DNA of 64,000 nucleotides from Patescibacteria group bacterium (GTDB lineage: Bacteria > Patescibacteriota > Microgenomatia > UBA8517), in the NCBI GenBank assembly GCA_035260845.1, contig DATFUL010000001.1, positions 4,245 through 68,244 of the forward strand, read 5' to 3'. The position numbers and the translations under genes are program-made. Every line of letters starts with the position of its first letter. Positions within the stretch are counted from its first letter, which is position 1. Below, in pieces: positions 17,534 to 55,126 of the stretch. The notes beneath the pieces were generated by a model, which saw nothing but the letters and a program-made list of their open reading frames with translations, was not told where the DNA came from and did no database searches.

Positions 17534-17596
17534 CAGTGTTCTTAAAGTTTTTTGTTTTATATTAAAAGAGAAAGGTCGCGTCCAGAGTGTGTCTGG

Positions 17597-20910
<3,314 letters not shown>

Positions 20911-21128
20911 GACACCATATTCGCACTGAATATGATCGGGACGCGACCTTCCTCTTCTAATTACACGTCAGAATCGTCTGACGTGACAAAAAAACTTAAA
21001 CTTCACAAAATTTATTATTAATAAATTTTGCGTTATTTCTTTATGTTAATGAGCAATTAGCTCTTGTTTACTTAACAGCTAAAGGACAGCTCCGATCAAA
21101 ATCGGAGCTCGCCTCTACCTACTAAGTG

Positions 21129-21201
21129 TGGACCCAGTGGGGGTCGAACCCACTACCTCGTCATTGCAAATGACGCGTTCAGCCAGTTAAACTTTGGGCC
21201 C
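21129..21201 (-). tRNA. tRNA-Ala (anticodon UGC)
   Basis: Reverse complement GGGCCCAAAGTTTAACTGGCTGAACGCGTCATTTGCAATGACGAGGTAGTGGGTTCGACCCCCACTGGGTCCA. The anticodon loop TTTGCAA gives UGC. G3:U70 and the A73 discriminator (Ala identity elements) are present. The T-loop is GGTTCGA. Confidence 0.85.
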
Positions 21202-21408
21202 AAGTTTAGCTTCCAAAGCCGCTATTTCTACTTTTAGGCTTGCTACATAATCTTGCAAAACTTTGAGCTCGCTACTTGCAAGTTCTCCTGATGCTGATTC
21301 ATGTGCAACTCCCCTAAAATGACTGAGTCTAAATTTTACTTTAGCCTCATATTCAGATAATTTTATTAAAAGTGCTTCCAGTTTTTCCTTGTCAGACAGT
21401 AGTTTCAT
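21187..21408 (-). CDS. Small coiled-coil ORF (73 aa) inside the rRNA spacer; possibly spurious
   Basis: ORF only. It overlaps the 5' end of tRNA-Ala by about 14 nt. A terminator-like hairpin lies just 5' of it on the minus strand. Confidence 0.2.
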   Translation of the reverse strand: MKLLSDKEKLEALLIKLSEYEAKVKFRLSHFRGVAHESASGELASSELKVLQDYVASLKVEIAALEAKLGPKV

Positions 21409-22069: not shown

Positions 22070-22144
22070 TGGTGGGTGCGCATGGGATCGAACCATGGAC
22101 CTCGTTCTTATCAGGAACGCGCTCTACCACTGAGCCACGCACCC
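22070..22144 (-). tRNA. tRNA-Ile (anticodon GAU), 3' CCA encoded
   Basis: Reverse complement GGGTGCGTGGCTCAGTGGTAGAGCGCGTTCCTGATAAGAACGAGGTCCATGGTTCGATCCCATGCGCACCCACCA. The anticodon loop CTGATAA gives GAU. Confidence 0.85.
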
Positions 22145-22265
22145 AAAACGCAAAGCTATTTTACCATTCATTTGATGAATGGCCAAGATCCTCTCTTACC
22201 ACGAGAAATTTAAATCCACATGTACCGAAAGCCTAGATCTTCAATTTGCTATATAATATTCTTGT

Positions 22266-23330
22266 ATGCCTGCTCTCACCACCCTGCTTCTTAAACTTCC
22301 TCGTAATCAAGATATTACCCCTGAGGCTGCAAAAACATTTCTTTCTGCTTTAACTCAAATCAATTCTGTCTCTACTTTTCAGAGACTACTTGGGACCCGT
22401 CCCCACCCTTTGGCTCTTGAGATTGCTGCTATAAATCAGCAAATACAATTTTTAATAACTTGCGATAACGAACTTGTTCCTTTTGTAAAAACTCAGATTC
22501 AAAGCAGTTACCCACTAGTCATTATTGAAAAGGTAGAAGATCCAATCCTTAGTCGGGATATGGAAATTATCGAATTAAAACTTGCAAAAGGTAGTTATTA
22601 CCCTATTGGTACTTACGATAAATTTGCAGATGTTGACCCAATAAGTTCCACCCTCTCCGTATTGTCAAAGGTAGAACCTACAGAGTTTGCCATTATTCAA
22701 ATATCACTTGAGGGAACACGAGGCGTTTGGCAATCTAAAGCCAATCAGTATGCGGACCGCGGCGTTAAAAATGAAGATGGTAGTTATCAGCCAAGATCGG
22801 ATAAAAACATCATAATCGAGAAAACTTCTTACCCAGGTTTTAAAGTTTCCATACGACTAGCTAGCAGTGCAACCAAAACCGCAAAAGAACTTGTTAATGC
22901 TTTTGGTGTCTTTGCTAGAGCCGACGCCAACTTTTTTAAGAAGAATTCTTCCATTTTTAATTCAGTTAAAGCACTTAATAAGAATATAAAAATAAGAAAA
23001 GTTGTGGGGAATCAGGTTTTGAACATTATGGAACTAGCAACTCTTTGGCATTTGCCTTCCGAAAAAATTAAAGTAACAGGAATAGCTTGGGGAACATCAG
23101 TTCTTTCAGAACCTCCCGACAACCTTCCAAATGCAGTTACTGCTACAGAAGAGGAAAAAATCATATCAATTTTTTTGGTAAAACTATTTTCAAAAACCAC
23201 GATACAATTTTTGGAATCAAAGATATTGATCGCCGCCGGCATATTTGGTCAATTGGTAAAACAGGAACAGGAAAAAGCACCCTTATTGCAAACATGGCAA
23301 TTGACGACATTAAAAAAGGCAAGGGTGTAG
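22266..23330 (+). CDS. N-terminal portion of a HerA/FtsK-superfamily (DUF87-like) ATPase, likely joined to the downstream ORF by a -1 frameshift at a T7 tract
   Basis: Sensible protein sequence continues up to ...TATEEEKIISIF at the T TTT TTG heptamer (23171-23177). Downstream of that point this frame loses conserved motifs, while the -1 frame carries the conserved ATPase sequence. Confidence 0.5.
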   Translation: MPALTTLLLKLPRNQDITPEAAKTFLSALTQINSVSTFQRLLGTRPHPLALEIAAINQQIQFLITCDNELVPFVKTQIQSSYPLVIIEKVEDPILSRDMEIIELKLAKGSYYPIGTYDKFADVDPISSTLSVLSKVEPTEFAIIQISLEGTRGVWQSKANQYADRGVKNEDGSYQPRSDKNIIIEKTSYPGFKVSIRLASSATKTAKELVNAFGVFARADANFFKKNSSIFNSVKALNKNIKIRKVVGNQVLNIMELATLWHLPSEKIKVTGIAWGTSVLSEPPDNLPNAVTATEEEKIISIFLVKLFSKTTIQFLESKILIAAGIFGQLVKQEQEKAPLLQTWQLTTLKKARV

Positions 23331-24403
23331 CCATTATCGACCCTCATGGAGACTTGTGCGATGTAATAATGAACTATATTCCAAAGCACAGAATTAACGA
23401 TGTTATTTATTTTAATCCGGCTGACAAAGACTACCCGATAGTTATCAATCCCTTAGAAGTTACGAATAAAGAAGAGGCTGAGCTTGTTGTTTCCGGAATT
23501 GTTTCGATATTTAATAAAATCTTTGGTTTTTCCTGGGGACCCCGCTTGGAATATATTTTACGAAACGCCCTAACAACCCTAGCCGAAGTCCCAAATTCAA
23601 CTCTTAAAGATGTTTCGCTTCTTTTAACCAATCAAACTTTTAGGACCAGGGTGGAAAATAGCATTAAAGACACAACGATGAAACAATTTTGGCGAGATGA
23701 ATTTGACCAAATGACCGACAAATTAAGACAAGAGGCTATTTCGCCGATTTTAAATAAAGTTGGCCAGTTTGTCACTTCCCCACTCATAAGGTCGGTTATA
23801 GGCCAACCAAAAAGCTCAATCAAACTTGACGACATTATGAACGAAGGAAAAATCCTAATTGCTAACCTGTCACAAGGAAAGCTGGGTGAGGATAACGCTG
23901 CCCTTCTTGGAGCAATGTTAATTACCAAACTCCAGCTTGCTGCTATGCATAGAGTCGACATGAAGGAAGAAGATAGACGGGATTTTTATTTATATGTTGA
24001 CGAGTTCCAAAACTTTGCCACAGGAAGCTTTATTAAAATTATGTCTGAGGCCCGCAAATATCATTTGAATATTATGCTTGCTAACCAATATATGGCCCAA
24101 ATTCCTGAGGAAGTCAGAAAATCAATCCTAGGAAACGCCGGGACAATAATGACTTTGGCTGTTGGAGCAAGCGATGCCGAAATACTATACAAAGAACTTG
24201 CAGAGGTTTTTTCACAAAATGACTTAGTTAATCTAGGTAACCACCAAATTGCTGCCAAAATGACGATTGACGGCAAAACAACAAGGCCATTTTTGGGAGT
24301 CACCCTTCCCCTTGGAACTTCCAATAACCAAAACCGGGATACGGTAATCCAGGTAAGCAGGGAGCGCTGGACACAAAAATTAAACCCTCAAAATAACCCA
24401 TAG
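23087..24403 (+). CDS. HerA/FtsK-like P-loop ATPase domain (DUF87-type); the real N-terminus is probably supplied by the upstream ORF, and the TTG start is an ORF-caller artefact
   Basis: Walker A RRRHIWSIGKTGTGKS and DPHGD (IIDPHGDLCDV). Walker B FYLYVDEFQNF. ARKYHLNIMLANQ ... motif typical of HerA/DUF87 and TraG-D-like ATPases. The first 30 aa of this frame look non-protein-like (CSYCYRRGKNH). Confidence 0.65.
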   Translation: MGNISSFRTSRQPSKCSYCYRRGKNHINFFGKTIFKNHDTIFGIKDIDRRRHIWSIGKTGTGKSTLIANMAIDDIKKGKGVAIIDPHGDLCDVIMNYIPKHRINDVIYFNPADKDYPIVINPLEVTNKEEAELVVSGIVSIFNKIFGFSWGPRLEYILRNALTTLAEVPNSTLKDVSLLLTNQTFRTRVENSIKDTTMKQFWRDEFDQMTDKLRQEAISPILNKVGQFVTSPLIRSVIGQPKSSIKLDDIMNEGKILIANLSQGKLGEDNAALLGAMLITKLQLAAMHRVDMKEEDRRDFYLYVDEFQNFATGSFIKIMSEARKYHLNIMLANQYMAQIPEEVRKSILGNAGTIMTLAVGASDAEILYKELAEVFSQNDLVNLGNHQIAAKMTIDGKTTRPFLGVTLPLGTSNNQNRDTVIQVSRERWTQKLNPQNNP

Positions 24404-24439
24404 TTGAAAAATCCCCAATTTTTGGTATAATTCCGCTAG

Positions 24440-24481: not shown

Positions 24482-24640
24482 GCACATTTACAAGAGAAGT
24501 AAGAGTTTGTCTCAGAACCTGTGGGCTCAAAAAATAGAGCCTAGAGGCTCTGAGGCAGACAGAGAAAAAAGGAAGGAAATTAGGGAAGAAATAGTAAGTA
24601 TTGTGAAATTTCAAAAACGTTCAAACAAAAGGAGAACGAA

Positions 24641-25495
24641 ATGAAGAAGTTCGTAAGTTTACTCGTAATAGCGGCCGTTGTGTTTGCAGCTGTGGCGGTA
24701 ATTGTACCAGCCCTTGCAAAGCCAGCCGACCCAGGTGGAAGTGTTTGCGATCAAGACCCGTCATGTGATATTGTTCCCCCCTCAGATTCAGGTACGTGGA
24801 CAGCACCAAGTTCAGTGACTGTATTTTGCGGTAAGTTAGGGAACGACAAAACGTGTTGGGGTCAAGGCACAAACAACGTTGTCAGTGGAGTTGATGGTGC
24901 GTGTTGGGACATGTCAGTAAATGGAAGTATTGTAACTTGGAATAGGTTGTCGACGTCGAACGTTTGCCAAGACCCCTCACATTTTGAAGGATCCTACGGC
25001 AGTTCGTCAACATCAACCACAGTTCCAGATACTCAAGTTCCGAATACGGCAACACAAGTTCCGAATACGGCAACCACAGTTCCAGATACTCAAGTTCCGA
25101 ATACGGCAACACTAGAAAATACTGAAGTTGCCAGTACGGGAACACCGATTAATACTGAGGTTGTTGATAATACATCAACTCCAGTACCAGCAGGTACAGG
25201 AACACCAGTTGTGAATACTCCAACTGATCCAGCTCCGACAGAAGAATCTGCTGTTGATCCAACGTATTGCGACCCTAACGACCACACCATTCACAACACT
25301 GTTGGTAGTATTCCGGATGGAATGCTAAAGGCGGATGACCCTGCCTGTAAACCAGCTGTAGTTGTGACCGAAAATTGGTGCACCGTGCATTTCGGTAAAG
25401 GGTCTTTGATATGGTGTCAGTGGGGAAAGGGAGGAACGGAAAGCCTGTGGGATATCTTTGTTACTAAAGTAACAAAGATGTTTCGTTCCCAGTAG
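24641..25495 (+). CDS. Secreted Cys-rich protein with tandem VP(N/D)T(A/Q)T repeats
   Basis: Strong Shine-Dalgarno sequence AAAGGAGAACGAAATG. Signal peptide MKKFVSLLVIAAVVFAAVAVIVPALA. About 16 Cys residues. 21-nt tandem DNA repeats encode TQVPNTATQVPNTATTVPDTQVPNTAT. Confidence 0.65.
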   Translation: MKKFVSLLVIAAVVFAAVAVIVPALAKPADPGGSVCDQDPSCDIVPPSDSGTWTAPSSVTVFCGKLGNDKTCWGQGTNNVVSGVDGACWDMSVNGSIVTWNRLSTSNVCQDPSHFEGSYGSSSTSTTVPDTQVPNTATQVPNTATTVPDTQVPNTATLENTEVASTGTPINTEVVDNTSTPVPAGTGTPVVNTPTDPAPTEESAVDPTYCDPNDHTIHNTVGSIPDGMLKADDPACKPAVVVTENWCTVHFGKGSLIWCQWGKGGTESLWDIFVTKVTKMFRSQ

Positions 25496-25523
25496 CGTAA
25501 AGAGGAAACAGGGATCTGCCCCC

Positions 25524-26594
25524 TTGTTTCTTCTCGGGATGCCGGGAGACTATCGGTATACCGATACTCCCCCCAACCCCCCCCTAACCCACCCTTTAAA
25601 AAAACTCACTTACTTCTCTTGCCATAATTTGACAACTAATTTTTTTGAAATTAATTGTGAAATTATGGATAGAAAAATAATGTATGCATCAGCTATAGCC
25701 ATTGAATTCTGGCTAGCTTCTTGTGCAAAACAACCAAAACCGATCTTAGCATCTGTAACACCAACGATTGCGCCTCCTGCTGAATTTACACCGACTAAAA
25801 CCGAAACCCCAATGCCAACTGCAACTGAAAGAGCCATAATTACAGTCGATGAACGTTTTAAACTTGGCAACTACGATGCGGCAGTCGATCAATTAACAAT
25901 AAAGGTCGGGAAAGAATTAAGAGATTTACTAGGATATTCACTTCTTGATTCCGGAAAGTTTAGTGTTGATATTCCGCTTGCTATTAAAAGTAATTCATTA
26001 GGTACTGAAGACCAATTCAGAATATTTGATGAAGGATCAAGAAATCGTAACAGTGATGTGGTTATGAAGGCGGCCAATGGCCGTGGTGGAAGCCATCCAA
26101 ACCCTGGCTACATAATCGCGCTTGATGCCTACCCTGGCAAAGAGCCAAAGGGTGTTGCAATTTATACCCACGATGTTCAAACTTTTCCATCCCCAGCCCC
26201 GACTGGTGACCTCGGCCTTGATATTTTGCAATGGGTAAGTAAGCATCCCGATAGAAAAGATGAGGTTAAGGGTAAGACGGCTGAGTTTTCCACCGACAAA
26301 GGTATAAGTTTTGAAGGCGAAATTGTTCATGCTGGTTATGTAAGTCAATATTTTTGGACAGGAGGAGATGGAAAAAATAGCCCATTTAGAACGTTCACAA
26401 GCGGTGACAATATTTTATTTGCAGACTCCGAAGCCCTCGGAATTCCACAAGATGTAGTTAAAGGTCTTGCAGAAGATGAATATTTAATAGTGATTGACAG
26501 TTGTTTAGGAGGAGACCCTGGAGAAACAACTGAAAGTATTAACGAAAATTCCAAAAACAGACTTGTTCTTGTCTTTAAAGTCAAAATAAAATAA
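25524..26594 (+). CDS. Hypothetical lipoprotein; probable true start at the internal Met around 25667-25682
   Basis: Internal MDRKIMYASAIAIEFWLASCAKQ carries a lipobox (LASC). No catalytic motif recognised. Confidence 0.45.
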   Translation: MFLLGMPGDYRYTDTPPNPPLTHPLKKLTYFSCHNLTTNFFEINCEIMDRKIMYASAIAIEFWLASCAKQPKPILASVTPTIAPPAEFTPTKTETPMPTATERAIITVDERFKLGNYDAAVDQLTIKVGKELRDLLGYSLLDSGKFSVDIPLAIKSNSLGTEDQFRIFDEGSRNRNSDVVMKAANGRGGSHPNPGYIIALDAYPGKEPKGVAIYTHDVQTFPSPAPTGDLGLDILQWVSKHPDRKDEVKGKTAEFSTDKGISFEGEIVHAGYVSQYFWTGGDGKNSPFRTFTSGDNILFADSEALGIPQDVVKGLAEDEYLIVIDSCLGGDPGETTESINENSKNRLVLVFKVKIK

Positions 26595-27400
26595 TGTCTG
26601 AAATTACTCCAAAAAAGATTGCCCTTTTTACCTTTGCAGCCGCATTGGGTGTAGCGGCTATTGCCCCAGTTGTTGCTAAAGCCATGGAAATAAATAATGA
26701 CAATAAGCCAAAACTTTTGACACAAGTACCGCCACTAACTTTTACACCTAACCCCACCCAAATTCCTAACGTGCACCAAACAGCATTCCCCACTCCATAT
26801 TTACTTGAAATAAAAGCCAAAATTCCAGTAGACATTCCTTTTTTTTCCCAGCTTGAACCCGTCTATAAGCAGATTTATTTCCAAGATGGAACTTCCTGGA
26901 GTAAGGTGGGTTGTGAAATTTTCGCGGGAGCAATGTTAGATAGAACCACTCCTAAAACCTATTATCAGAATTCATTGGATTACTTTGCCAAGCAGAGAAA
27001 AGACGGCACACAAAGATTTTCTAAAGATGGAAGCAGTTACGAAGATCTTATTGCTGTTTTGACAGACAAAGGTCACACATTTATAGAACTTTCCAAAGGA
27101 AATAACACAAAATTTGAAGATGTTAGGGCTTTAATTAAGAAATATACCGATCATGGTATTCCCGTATTGGTAAGGGGGGCTATTTGGCTTGGAAACGGCA
27201 CCCTAGGACATATGTCGGTTATTGTTGATGTCAATGAAAATGGAGGCTTAGTCTCAAATGACTCAATTTGGGGTAAAAATTACGTAATTGATGAATCAAA
27301 ATATCTTGAGGAAATAAAAAGTAGGGAAAGAGATGTAGACTCTACCAATAGCCTCAAGGTTTTCGCTGTTTACCCACCAACTACAGTTCCTACCCCTTAA
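26594..27400 (+). CDS. Secreted C39-like (papain-fold) cysteine peptidase domain protein
   Basis: Signal peptide. The IPFFSQLEPVYKQ...KVGCEIFAGAMLD segment resembles the VPxxxQ...xCGxAxxAM motif of peptidase_C39-like domains. A downstream candidate catalytic His lies in GTLGHMSVIVDV. Confidence 0.5.
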   Translation: MSEITPKKIALFTFAAALGVAAIAPVVAKAMEINNDNKPKLLTQVPPLTFTPNPTQIPNVHQTAFPTPYLLEIKAKIPVDIPFFSQLEPVYKQIYFQDGTSWSKVGCEIFAGAMLDRTTPKTYYQNSLDYFAKQRKDGTQRFSKDGSSYEDLIAVLTDKGHTFIELSKGNNTKFEDVRALIKKYTDHGIPVLVRGAIWLGNGTLGHMSVIVDVNENGGLVSNDSIWGKNYVIDESKYLEEIKSRERDVDSTNSLKVFAVYPPTTVPTP

Positions 27401-27411
27401 TTTTTCCACTA

Positions 27412-27455
27412 AAAAACCACCCCTTCACGAAGTGTGAATATTGAGGTGGTTTTAA
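27412..27455 (+). terminator. Putative Rho-independent terminator ending the plus-strand cassette, just before the 16S 3' end
   Basis: aaaaaaccacc cttcacgaagtg ... ggtggtttt hairpin with a T-tract. Confidence 0.4.
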
Positions 27456-27657: not shown

Positions 27658-29125
<1,468 letters not shown>

Positions 29126-29363
29126 TAGTGCTAAAAATGGCATTTCAGCCATAGCTAGCGATCCTGCTTCCAGTCATATTTTGAATCCCAATACTGCTAG
29201 TATGGGTCGTTCCAAACTTCGCACAGAGGCTTGGAACACTTTGATTAACCTGAATCTTCGAAAGTAAAAGTACCCACAAATGAAGTTTTTACCCTGAAGG
29301 GAAGTTAACCTCCTACTCGAATATTGGTATTATATCACAGTGGAAAACATGGTCAATCCCAGA

Positions 29364-52497: not shown

Positions 52498-53562
52498 TCA
52501 TTTGTTTGCAACTACATATTTACTTGCCTTTGTTGTCCCGGTTTTCTTTAAAATTCCTTTCCCGAGCAAATCTTTGAGCTCGCGAAGAATAGTATCCTCC
52601 GAAACCATAGGTAGTACCTTTTTAAGTTCGCTCATTCCTCCACTCCCCTGGTCAGAAATAAATTCAATCAAACGCATTTGGCGTTCACCGAGGGCAATTT
52701 GTTCTCCAAATTTGACCTTAAGTCGGGTGTCAACTGAAAGTTTTCTAACTTTATCTTTAATTTTTGTGAGCTCCACCGCCACAACATGAGTAAAATATTC
52801 AAGCCAGGGAGTAATATCGCGTGAGCCGATGTTTGGAGACTGTCTATCTACTTGAGCAATTGCCTCATAATAGTCACCGGGGTCAGTGTCAAAATGTTCT
52901 TCAAGTGAGAAGAATTTTTTAACATTGTAACCCTCCTTCATCAAAATCAAGGTTGAAAAAGCACGAACAGTTCTACCATTTCCTTCAACAAATGGATGGA
53001 TTGCAACTAAAATATAGTGTGCGATTCCGGCCCTAATAATAGGGTGAGTCTCACGGGCTTCAGGATTATTAAGCCAGGCAAAAAAATCTTCCAAGAGATA
53101 CGGAACTTCAATATGTGGAGGCGGAGAAAAAATAACTTTACCGGTTCCTTCTTCTTTAATGACAACTTCTGTGGTTCTAAAAACCCCAACTTTATCTGGT
53201 GCAATGATTCTATCCACAGTAAGCCTATGAATATCCCGTAGCATATCTAGGTCATAATCTCCCCGTTTAGCCGAAAGTTCGTCTAATAGTTCCGTAACGT
53301 TTCTGTAATTAATTACTTCCTGAATATCCCGAGCCCTTGCGTAAACTTCTTGTCCTTCTAAGATTTTTTTTGTTTGGTACAAAGTTAAATCATTCCCCTC
53401 TATATGGGTGCCATGATGGATTGTTCTTAAATTAGCGTCACTTTGAAACTGTTTTTCGAATGATGGAACCAGTGGGGCGTTTTCTATCACCTCACGGCTA
53501 GCCTCAATGGAACCAATGTTTTTAAGAACTTTATTAGAAACTAAGAATTTTGGAGAATACAT
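52498..53562 (-). CDS. Fic/DOC-family protein (putative AMPylator) with C-terminal winged-helix domain
   Basis: Fic motif HPFVEGNGRTVR. Confidence 0.8.
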   Translation of the reverse strand: MYSPKFLVSNKVLKNIGSIEASREVIENAPLVPSFEKQFQSDANLRTIHHGTHIEGNDLTLYQTKKILEGQEVYARARDIQEVINYRNVTELLDELSAKRGDYDLDMLRDIHRLTVDRIIAPDKVGVFRTTEVVIKEEGTGKVIFSPPPHIEVPYLLEDFFAWLNNPEARETHPIIRAGIAHYILVAIHPFVEGNGRTVRAFSTLILMKEGYNVKKFFSLEEHFDTDPGDYYEAIAQVDRQSPNIGSRDITPWLEYFTHVVAVELTKIKDKVRKLSVDTRLKVKFGEQIALGERQMRLIEFISDQGSGGMSELKKVLPMVSEDTILRELKDLLGKGILKKTGTTKASKYVVANK

Positions 53563-53613
53563 TCATTTATATTAACGCAACTCCTGCGGTAAATACAGTG
53601 GTATAATGACTTC

Positions 53614-53883
53614 ATGGTAAAGCTTGGACGGCATGTTAAAAAACATTTTAGTGCGCTCCAAAAAGACATATTTAAACAAATGCTAACACTCGCAACTAGT
53701 GGATTTGGGCTCGTTGCCGCACTTGCTTGGAACGAACTTATTAAAGAGATTGTGACTAAATATATTCAACCCGTGGCAGGGGTAAACTCCGGATTAATTT
53801 CCTTACTTGTCTATGCAGTAATCGTTACACTTCTTGCTGTTTTTGTGACCTACAGTTTGACTAAATTAGTGAAGAAAAATTAA
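53614..53883 (+). CDS. Small membrane protein (89 aa)
   Basis: Two TM helices. Confidence 0.35.
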   Translation: MVKLGRHVKKHFSALQKDIFKQMLTLATSGFGLVAALAWNELIKEIVTKYIQPVAGVNSGLISLLVYAVIVTLLAVFVTYSLTKLVKKN

Positions 53884-54109
53884 TCGTCCCGCACAACAAC
53901 ATCAGGTAAATGATTCACACCAGTCGGGTGTTGTGCATTTGGTGGCCTTTCCGTCAAAAGAGGAGTACCGTCTGGAAGTGTTGGTGGAATCTCGTCAGCA
54001 TCATTTTTTCTTGTTTTAGTAACAATTCTTCCGGTAACCTGGTGTTCCTTCCACGGATTTCCATGAACTTTTGTTTTTCTTTCTATTATCTTTCCCTCTT
54101 TGCTCATAA

Positions 54110-55126
54110 TTATAAGTTTATTATACCTCCCGATTTCAACCCTTTCAAAAAATGTTCGTCAGCTGTCGTAATCACAGTTTGCTGTCTTTTAGCAAGTTCT
54201 ACAACAATGTCCCTGTGTTCGTGATCAAGTTCCGAGAATATGTCATCAAGGAGTAGGGTCGGCCGCTCAGAAGTTTTTTCCTCTATAAAATTTAGTTCCG
54301 CCATCTTAAGCCAAAGAACTCCCATTCTCTGCTCCCCACGACTTCCGTAACTTGCCAGATTTCTTTTACCATCAAAAAATATAAAATCATCTCTGTGCGG
54401 ACCAACAAGAGTTGTTGCTGCCGAAACCTCTTCCTGTTTATATTGCTCTAACCTGCCATCGGAAATTACAGATCTATCGTATTCCAAACGATAGTTAGTA
54501 TTAGATGGGGGTTCTTGAGAATTAACAAAATCAATAAATTCCTGCCGTCTAATACTTATGTAATCCCCATTTTTAATTAGAAGTTGATTCCAAAACAAAA
54601 GCTGGGATCTTGGGACACCCTCTTCTCGGATTCTAAATAGAAGTTTATTTCTCTGTCTTAAACCCTTTTCATAGGAGAGAATATTACGTCGGTACTCCCT
54701 ATCAATTTGACAAAGAACATTATCTAAAAATTTACGGCGAATAGATGGCGACTCTGTAACAAGATCCATGTCCTGTGGTGCAAAAAGAACGGTTTTAAAG
54801 TTGCCAGCAAAATCAATTGTCCTTTTGGCAACTCCATTTACTAGTACTCTTTTTTTGGGCCAGCCATTGTCTCCTCTTGTGATTTTGACTTCAAGGCTTG
54901 TACCATCTGTAACTCCTAAAATACTTGCAATATCTTCATCGTATTTTATAATTTCCGCTTCTAATTTTGCTTTAAAACTTTTTGCGGTTGAGAGCAAAAA
55001 AAGTGACTCCAAGATGTTGGTTTTACCTGAGGCATTTGGACCAACAATAGTTGTTATTTTGTCAGAAAATTCCAAAGCTTTAGTTTTAAAATTTCTAAAG
55101 CCTTTTAGTTTTAGATTTTTGATCAT
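54110..55126 (-). CDS. recF: DNA replication/repair protein RecF (short form)
   Basis: Walker A GPNASGKTNILE. SMC-like signature. Walker B LLLDDIFSELD. Confidence 0.8.
   Translation of the reverse strand: MIKNLKLKGFRNFKTKALEFSDKITTIVGPNASGKTNILESLFLLSTAKSFKAKLEAEIIKYDEDIASILGVTDGTSLEVKITRGDNGWPKKRVLVNGVAKRTIDFAGNFKTVLFAPQDMDLVTESPSIRRKFLDNVLCQIDREYRRNILSYEKGLRQRNKLLFRIREEGVPRSQLLFWNQLLIKNGDYISIRRQEFIDFVNSQEPPSNTNYRLEYDRSVISDGRLEQYKQEEVSAATTLVGPHRDDFIFFDGKRNLASYGSRGEQRMGVLWLKMAELNFIEEKTSERPTLLLDDIFSELDHEHRDIVVELAKRQQTVITTADEHFLKGLKSGGIINL

Follow-up and report, generated by a model that had tools for sequence, protein, structure and literature searches.

We analysed a 64,000-nt stretch of DNA (hereafter the window; positions 4,245 to 68,244 of contig DATFUL010000001.1, assembly GCA_035260845.1), which is part of a chromosomal contig of a metagenome-assembled genome (MAG) of Patescibacteria, also called the candidate phyla radiation (CPR). 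Our subject was a cassette of three co-directional open reading frames (ORFs) on the plus strand, namely ORF1 (24641-25495), ORF2 (25665-26594) and ORF3 (26594-27400). ORF3 is predicted to be a papain-fold, C39-like cysteine peptidase acting outside the cytoplasm, and ORF2, a lipoprotein of an uncharacterised family, appears from the gene neighbourhoods to be its obligate upstream partner. As to their role, we favour, at a probability of about one half, a conserved ORF2-ORF3 surface pair with a cell-wall substrate, with ORF1 as a variable surface component. A sequence-only reading of the same DNA had described the three genes before, and ORF calls and translations bore it out apart from small errors; its view that they form a real secreted module also agrees with the conserved extracytoplasmic cassette that we found across loci. 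Homologous loci and proteins are cited here by L and P numbers.

ORF3 (plus strand) encodes 268 amino acids and is named hypothetical protein VKC53_00150 at NCBI. We read it as a secreted or membrane-tethered peptidase (C39-like/C70-like, clan CA) with a signal peptide at residues 1-30 that ends in AKA, a Pro/Thr linker and a catalytic domain at about residues 76-262. The protein itself has no match in Pfam (E <= 1), NCBIfam or PHROG, and phmmer against PDB sequences returned chance matches only. A word-indexed search with ORF3 found one relative, and the alignment of 28 sequences used as a query added none. Exhaustive phmmer against 1.84 billion representatives gave 29 matches, of which 27 are true relatives; P0026 and P0032 were dropped as repeat-driven false positives. 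All relatives found by sequence come from CPR-type metagenome and MAG contigs, and a profile scan of genome contigs with the peptidase alignment gave no confirmed relative. When 30 sequences were scanned against Pfam, Peptidase_C39_2 was found in 13 (E <= 0.01, best 5.9e-12), Peptidase_C70 in seven, SLT in two and CHAP in one. P0021 (46.8 bits), P0031 (25.5) and P0028 (24.2) lie above the 24-bit cut-off of PF13529. Since ORF3 itself lacks a match, its membership in the PF13529 type rests on transitive homology.

The active site could be placed by conservation and modelling together. Gln86, Cys107, Pro120, His206 and Asp223 (ORF3 numbering) are invariant in the 28 aligned domains, and Q86, C107, H206 and D223 are also common to ORF3 and P0002 in the pairwise comparison. 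Cys107 stands in KVGCEIF (nt 26912-26914) and His206 in GHMSVIV (nt 27209-27211), the two residues that the sequence-only reading had named for a secreted papain-fold peptidase. AlphaFold2 modelled the ORF3 domain with a predicted local distance difference test score (pLDDT) of 91.8 and a predicted template modelling score (pTM) of 0.88. The 28-sequence alignment was needed for this, as an alignment of two sequences gave a pLDDT of 38.7. In domain numbering, Cys32 opens the helix 32-41, His131 lies in the strand 128-138 and the Asp is on the strand 144-148; Gln86 is placed as the oxyanion-hole residue. The top Foldseek matches in the PDB are all papain-like (Cpe1-type toxin 9l5u, BpJOS, CdiA-CT 8ssm, staphopains, ComA 3k8u and GtgE). 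In the profile search against PDB sequences we obtained 9l5u at 5.5e-5, the pseudomurein endoisopeptidase PeiR at 2.3e-4, CdiA-CT at 9e-4 and AvrRpt2 at 0.011. Invariance, model, fold matches and the Pfam matches of relatives thus agree with the peptidase that had been proposed, and the outcome that would have spoken against it, a predicted structure without a papain-like Cys/His dyad, did not occur. Like Peptidase_C39_2 (PF13529) and Peptidase_C70 (PF12385, AvrRpt2), the family has the order Gln...Cys...His...Asp, the Cys at a helix N-terminus, a papain-like alpha+beta fold and the motifs 'pYfsQ', 'GCG..A..M' and 'GHh.vvvG....i..nDP'. It differs from them in a helical insert, about 60 residues long, that separates Cys from His, in being consistently tethered to the membrane outside the cell and in its dedicated upstream lipoprotein partner. 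By these comparisons the ORF3 family appears to be a divergent, CPR-restricted C39-like branch in a new genetic arrangement.

The location of the family is consistent among its members. The short ones carry lipoboxes, Sec signals or RRDFL twin-arginine signals, and a single N-terminal membrane anchor was found in those of 430-2250 amino acids whose N-terminus is intact. An export signal or anchor in all members places the family outside the cytoplasm. Unlike most of its relatives, ORF3 is not a lipoprotein, because its only Cys is the catalytic one. In the long members, including giants of 1700-2250 amino acids, the peptidase domain stands at the extreme C-terminus. The only other segments that we found in the giants are SLT, GGDEF, PP2C and beta-lactamase-like ones, and none of the recognised delivery domains (PAAR, VgrG, Rhs, CdiA, LXG or others) was detected in these proteins. 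As a side observation, the window opens with an ORF of at least 1371 amino acids (14-4129, plus strand), followed by LysM-M23 and Rho genes (4212-5303 and 5536-6804, both minus strand). The giant P0023 (2254 amino acids, with the C39-like domain at its end; L089 and L090) is found in the same LysM-M23/Rho gene order, and a hidden Markov model search did not find the domain in the window's own giant ORF.

Canonical C39 domains (ComA, LahT) share the fold and the triad with ORF3; for the ComA peptidase domain 3k8u the template modelling score (TM-score) is 0.68 on the target and the root-mean-square deviation 4.0. Those domains, however, are fused to ABC exporters on the cytoplasmic side, where they cut double-Gly leaders, whereas ORF3 carries a signal for Sec export. 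Neither the spacer nor the flanking genes that we scanned encode an ABC transporter. The sequence-only reading had suggested looking for a double-Gly leader in the neighbouring proteins, and no such leader-type substrate gene was found beside ORF3. PGG does follow the ORF1 signal peptide, and GG is also present in the ORF1 homologue P0004, while the equivalents in L002, L092 and L098 lack such an N-terminal motif. With neither exporter nor leader peptide, and with the enzyme outside the membrane, bacteriocin processing and export of the C39 type was rejected.

ORF2 (plus strand) encodes a lipoprotein of 309 amino acids when translated from the ATG at 25665; the mechanical ORF starts at 25524. 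From this ATG the lipobox L-A-S-C falls at residues 17-20 and ends in Cys20, in accordance with the lipobox protein that had been read in second place. The stop codon overlaps the start of ORF3 (ATAATG). We surveyed contigs encoding relatives, together with metagenome scans, for this linkage. In 10 loci the peptidase gene is immediately preceded by a gene of the ORF2 family (hmmsearch, E 1e-129 to 8e-10); these loci are the window, L002, L004, L005 (partial), L086, L088, L091, L092, L098 and L105. In the nine loci other than the window it overlaps the peptidase gene or lies no more than about 80 nt away. L003 was uninformative, and the partial upstream ORF of L087 fell below the hmmsearch threshold. 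For the giant peptidase-domain proteins, an ORF2-family neighbour was not found. ORF2 itself has no Pfam, NCBIfam or PHROG match, and its family none in Pfam or among PDB sequences. In the family alignment His169 and Cys280 are invariant. Two enzymatic identities were considered. A sortase, the hallmarks of which are the sortase fold, a His...Cys...Arg triad and a TLxTC motif, was rejected: hhalign against the window's own sortase gave a probability of 0.2, and no Pfam Sortase match was seen at E <= 10 in six family members. The other was a caspase-like protein, read from the H...C motifs in sequence only, which nothing supports.

ORF1 (plus strand), the hypothetical protein VKC53_00140 of NCBI, is a secreted protein of 284 amino acids. 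Its Sec-type signal peptide (MKKFVSLLVIAAVVFAAVAVIVPALA/KP) agrees with the one previously read. It is followed by an N-terminal domain with six Cys, a Thr/Pro-rich linker with a short repeat (25014-25115) and a C-terminal domain with four Cys that ends in an aromatic amphipathic tail. The sequence-only reading had given about 16 Cys and a perfect 21-nt tandem array, and here we had to correct it: 10 Cys were counted, and the array has 2.4 copies with 93% matches. The 21-nt repeat is nested in a 57-nt duplication (25014-25058 and 25071-25115) and encodes three TQVPNTA heptads. An independent assembly of the same genome in the European Nucleotide Archive begins at this place, as position 1 of its contig L001 is window position 25071, exactly at the second repeat copy. 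The 57-nt repeat would therefore break short-read assembly, and the copy number in ORF1 is uncertain. No Pfam, NCBIfam or PHROG match was obtained for ORF1, and the word-indexed search gave a single homologue, P0004, which is 50% identical over the N-terminal six-Cys domain. Total GC is 0.47, against 0.38 ± 0.04 for the genome; ORF1 is the only cassette gene with high GC, in line with its Thr, Pro, Gly and Cys residues. A C-rich tract (CCCCCCAACCCCCCCCTAACCCACCC) was noted at 25560-25600, within the 170 nt that separate ORF1 from the start of ORF2.

The gene before ORF2, which we call position 1, encodes a Cys-rich protein with a Sec signal in all five loci where it is visible (the window, L002, L092, L098 and L105); in several short contigs it is not visible, and the co-occurrence is known for these five loci only. 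The five proteins are not BLAST-similar to one another, and ORF1 thus seems to occupy a hypervariable slot that differs between genomes, as judged from their sequences. All five nonetheless end in a similar way, with a Cys pair of the disulfide type, then [A/N/G]-G, and then an aromatic amphipathic tail of 12-18 residues. These ends read CQWGKGG-TESLWDIFV... in the window, CLPANG-VGELLANFLVWYY in L002, CPPEAG-VREWIQLIL in L092, CDPSAG-ENSFWAWFYSWW in L098 and ...NSAG-TSYFEAFRLIV in L105. A regular expression that we wrote after seeing four of the tails matches five of 6936 reading frames, with the window and L105 fitting a loosened version only. Because of this post-hoc definition and the loose fit, we treat the motif as a lead and not as a result. 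Separately, the window carries a sortase and a protein that ends in LPKTG, a transmembrane helix and a basic tail (9027-9725 and 53347-54276, both minus strand), and the sorting signals in related genomes are VPSAG, LPQSG and LPVTG. These signals resemble the x-P-x-x-G element in the tails of position-1 proteins.

According to the explanation that we favour, the core of the cassette would be a two-gene unit of the ORF2 lipoprotein and the translationally coupled ORF3. ORF3 would be attached to the outside of the cytoplasmic membrane and may cleave peptide or isopeptide bonds in peptidoglycan, either in the bacterium's own wall or in that of the host cell. ORF2 could partner it as a regulator, an inhibitor or a second enzyme, and ORF1 may be a lineage-specific surface or host-interaction component expressed with the pair. 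A cell-wall peptide, own or host, is the most likely substrate because of the repeated association with peptidoglycan enzymes (SLT, beta-lactamase-like, CHAP, M23 and YkuD), which is an association and not a proof. P0010 and P0023 have an SLT domain fused to the peptidase domain, and in P0019 a Beta-lactamase2-like segment adjoins it. In L098 a gene for a Peptidase_M23 lipoprotein is inserted between the ORF2-family gene and the peptidase gene (2.4e-18), in L092 a Beta-lactamase2 gene abuts the peptidase gene, and in L105 a YkuD L,D-transpeptidase gene follows it. Among viral proteins, the fold is matched best by a phi29-type wall-hydrolase protein, tape-measure proteins and a lysozyme, and a published list of enzymatically active domains of phage lysins includes Peptidase_C39_2 (PMC8223927). 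We also count the profile match to PeiR, a pseudomurein endoisopeptidase, among the links to the cell wall.

Several points weigh against this explanation. ORF3 carries no glycosidase or wall-binding domain, and the M23, YkuD and beta-lactamase neighbours were each seen in one locus only. The solved relatives nearest in sequence (Cpe1, CdiA-CT, AvrRpt2 and ComA) are enzymes that cut proteins and not peptidoglycan (PMC12136450). Owing to the helical insert in the ORF3 family, the TM-scores to PDB structures reach a moderate 0.4-0.5 on the query. Beside the catalytic residues, ORF3 and P0002 also deviate from the consensus of the family (GCEIF versus GCGIM, GHMS versus GHHT and SNDS versus FNDP), so specificity, or even activity, may differ. 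No homologue of known function was detected for the ORF2 family.

The cassette lies inside the ribosomal RNA locus. The 16S gene (27660-29128) is on the minus strand, as are tRNA-Ile (22070-22144), tRNA-Ala (21128-21201), the 23S gene (17596-20906) and a 5S gene that is grouped with these three. A group I intron was found inside the 23S gene (17927-18168, minus strand; Rfam RF00028, 58.5 bits). Between 16S and tRNA-Ile are five protein ORFs on the opposite strand, that is, an ATPase gene read as two and ORF1-ORF3. The 16S gene is 6.75 kb from 23S and 5.5 kb from tRNA-Ile, and with more than 1.5 kb and genes between 16S and 23S the operon is of the unlinked kind. As in other CPR bacteria with unlinked operons or intron-bearing rRNA genes, 16S and 23S are separated, the 23S gene has its group I intron, and the 16S genes of relatives have insertions or LAGLIDADG genes; the difference is that the spacer here holds conserved opposite-strand protein genes and that tRNA-Ile and tRNA-Ala are kept beside 23S. 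The genes that flank the rRNA locus in the window are housekeeping ones (Rho, RadA-like, S1, sortase, MFS and LysM-M23).

Related genomes have a similar arrangement. The 16S 3' end is convergent just downstream of the peptidase gene in L002 (44 nt of 16S at the contig end), L004 (131 nt, 81%), L091 (164 nt, 94.5%) and L098 (full 16S, 90%). L105 ends with 23 nt of 16S, a few genes beyond the peptidase. In L092 the series is 23S, tRNA-Ala, tRNA-Ile, ATPase, cassette, 4.8 kb of other genes and 16S. Across these genomes the 16S identity over long alignments is 88-90% and that of the ATPase 81-83%, compared with 26-38% for ORF3 where measured and 24-29% for ORF2. The GC content at third codon positions (GC3) of all three cassette genes is within about 1.7 standard deviations of the genome mean. 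Using tblastn, we did not find ORF3 in the plasmid collection or the consensus-like P0015 domain in phages. The sequence-only reading had taken the location in an rRNA spacer as a sign of horizontal acquisition and had asked for a comparison of composition. Except for the total GC of ORF1, both GC and GC3 proved to be within the genome range, and the genes occupy the same locus in relatives, the very situation that it had said would speak against acquisition. The synteny beside 16S and the native composition thus argue against horizontal acquisition, and the cassette was most likely inherited vertically, within the split rRNA operon of a clade of CPR bacteria of the Microgenomates type.

We also recorded several features of the rRNA locus. 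A hairpin with flanking A and T runs (27408-27455, not assigned to a strand) separates the stop of ORF3 from the 3' end of 16S. A pattern scan reads it as a terminator-like site on the minus strand (27434-27418), about 230 nt past the 3' end of 16S, and it possibly acts in both directions. A promoter-like site (22158-22186, minus strand) stands just upstream of tRNA-Ile, and together the two fit separate units for 16S and for tRNA-Ile-tRNA-Ala-23S-5S. Between tRNA-Ile and tRNA-Ala there is a coiled-coil-like ORF of 73 amino acids (21187-21408, minus strand) whose 3' end overlaps tRNA-Ala. L092 has a clear homologue of 78 amino acids in the same place (551-787, minus strand), and the ORF seems to be a protein-coding gene within the transcription unit of the tRNAs and 23S. 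In L004 (1722-2249) a LAGLIDADG gene and a match to group II intron D1-D4 lie just inside the 16S 3' region, and the 16S gene of L006 (2601-4954) holds about 850 extra nt that contain an ORF with a LAGLIDADG-like start.

Upstream of the cassette is the ATPase gene (22266-24403, plus strand), whose product resembles a type IV coupling protein (T4CP) with a DUF8128 N-terminal region and a P-loop domain of the VirD4/TraD/HerA type. Its Pfam matches are TrwB_AAD_bind (3.7e-10), DUF87 and TraG-D_C. It is read as two overlapping frames (22266-23330 and 23087-24403) owing to a 1-nt deficit in an A6 run at 23155-23160, and both halves match one profile, phrog_5156 (824 positions). The protein is 81% identical to that of an intact gene of 800 amino acids in L002, which carries PF26449 DUF8128, and the orthologues in L002, L092 and L098 read straight through. 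The frame break could be an assembly error, a pseudogene or slippage. The ATPase adjoins the cassette in the window and in these three loci, while in L006 it is directly next to 16S without a cassette. It has at least 599 matches across CPR lineages, and in all 80 of the other ATPase loci that we fetched (ATPase at most 65% identical) the peptidase and the ORF2 family are absent within 10 kb. In some Microgenomates (L008, L013 and L021) the ATPase is divergently flanked by a conserved gene pair, of which one gene encodes 372-488 amino acids and contains 'MEQHPVPQNVTTFQFRLIGDMT' and the second encodes 218-233 amino acids (seen in L008 and L021). The pair may represent membrane components of a type IV secretion system (T4SS); no homologue of either gene was found within the 64-kb window.

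ORF1 starts 238 nt past the ATPase stop. Directly after that stop is a promoter-like site (24404-24431, plus strand; TTGAAA-16-TG-TATAAT, 11/12), a pattern match from a consensus scan, which could give the cassette its own transcription start. It is followed, in the leader upstream of ORF1, by a long stem-loop (24505-24560, plus strand; minimum free energy -38.4 kcal/mol, z = -7.35) with a stem of about 25 bp and no T-tail on the plus strand. The equivalent spacer of L002 (about 8312-8369) forms a comparable hairpin (z = -6.37) whose inner stem differs in sequence. In Rfam, no known RNA was found in the cassette spacers, this stem-loop included. The sequence-only reading had likened the ATPase and the cassette together to a processing/export or contact-dependent effector module. 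The ATPase is a conserved neighbour of the cassette, and a functional unit of the two is doubtful because it is CPR-wide, occurs in the 80 loci without the peptidase and is separated by the promoter-like site and the hairpin.

Other explanations of the cassette were weighed against the same data, and two of them stay in consideration because the nearest solved relatives cleave proteins after Gly-Gly (PMC12136450). One is that ORF3, ORF2 or both cleave or transfer ORF1 at a C-terminal signal, in the manner of a sortase or leader peptidase, so that a variable surface protein is released or anchored. Enzymes of the C39 and Cpe1 types do cleave after Gly-Gly or x-Gly (PMC12136450), the position-1 proteins of all five full cassettes share the tail with its rarely matched motif, ORF2 has its invariant His and Cys, and the three genes are co-directional and tightly spaced. 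We still consider such maturation unlikely, as the motif was defined after the fact, its co-occurrence is limited to five loci, ORF2 has no homology to sortases or to any Pfam or PDB family, and the giants carry the peptidase domain without such a neighbour. Its most specific form, a previously undescribed CPR surface-protein maturation system in which ORF3 and ORF2 cut or transfer a hypervariable, disulfide-rich secreted protein at a shared C-terminal signal (Cys...Cys-x-[A/N/G]-G and the aromatic amphipathic tail), we regard as quite improbable. The other is an interbacterial toxin-immunity pair, with ORF3 as a contact-dependent papain-like toxin against the host or a competitor cell and ORF2 as the cognate immunity lipoprotein that protects the producer. 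Cpe1 (pair 9l5u) and the CdiA-CT toxins (9l5u and 8ssm in the PDB; PMC12136450) are indeed among the best profile and fold matches, the domain forms the C-terminal end of very large proteins, an arrangement known from polymorphic toxins, the two genes are strictly linked, and peptidase and partner diverge fast (24-38% identity) compared with the adjacent ATPase. Those toxins, however, act in the target cytoplasm on GyrB and ParE, are delivered by type VI secretion or contact-dependent inhibition systems and have their immunity gene downstream. Here ORF3 is a stand-alone protein of 268 amino acids without a delivery domain, and none was detected in the giants either. What follows ORF3 is the 16S gene and not a small immunity gene; the partner is upstream, has about 300 amino acids, is thus larger than the enzyme domain, and has an invariant His and Cys more typical of an enzyme. 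Moreover, both proteins are anchored to the producer's membrane, as are the lipidated short forms of the family, and the giants have no ORF2-family neighbour, so that we think a toxin-immunity pair rather improbable.

The adjoining ATPase invites a further explanation, namely a T4SS accessory module in which ORF3 opens the wall like VirB1 and the coupling protein exports DNA or proteins. The relatives with SLT and Cys-peptidase domains resemble the PrgK/TraG-type VirB1 proteins of monoderm T4SS (PMC12102498). P0010 and P0023 combine SLT/lysozyme and Cys/His peptidase domains as do PrgK, TraG of pIP501, CwlT and phage virion-associated lysins, and the viral fold matches named above as well as the position beside a T4CP-like ATPase are of the same kind. 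Yet the peptidase domain is C39-like here and not CHAP or NlpC/P60, ORF3 has no glycosidase domain, and only the ATPase is adjacent, with no virB4-centred cluster. Patescibacterial T4CP homologues (5,713 in 2,918 genomes) are mostly far from virB4, and the T4CP is not essential for epibiotic growth of S. epibionticum (PMC12102498). The 80 loci without the peptidase, the lone ATPase of L006, the lack in the window of the flanking gene pair, and the promoter-like site and hairpin before ORF1 all count against it too, as does the pair in L086, which has no ATPase in 10 kb downstream on a contig that starts only 1.2 kb upstream. We consider this module very unlikely. Least credible to us is a genomic island recently inserted in the 16S-23S spacer. 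Five opposite-strand protein genes between 16S and tRNA-Ile and the high GC of ORF1 would suit an island, but the arrangement recurs in L002, L092 and L098, and partly in L004, L091 and L105, with 16S genes about 81-94% and peptidases 26-38% identical. There is no integrase, no transposase and no flanking repeat, GC3 is native, and the plasmid (ORF3 query) and phage (P0015 domain query) collections gave no homologues.

CPR bacteria live attached to other microbes, which makes surface enzymes prime candidates for holding on to the host and feeding on it, and most of their surface proteins are unannotated. The analysis provides a predicted fold and active site for one such family, which includes short lipoproteins as well as the C-terminal domains of surface proteins of 1700-2250 amino acids. 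It also adds a family of lipoproteins, marked by an invariant His and Cys, that appear to be its obligate partners, and a slot for fast-evolving Cys-rich proteins beside the peptidase pair. The split rRNA operon with its stable spacer protein genes is a caution against reading genes in rRNA spacers as horizontal transfer. If the maturation system were true, it would yield a rapidly diversifying host-recognition or attachment molecule and would be analogous in logic to sortase and exosortase systems while built from unrelated parts. Under the cell-wall explanation that we favour, an enzyme that cuts host or self peptidoglycan would be a concrete target for studying how these epibionts attach.

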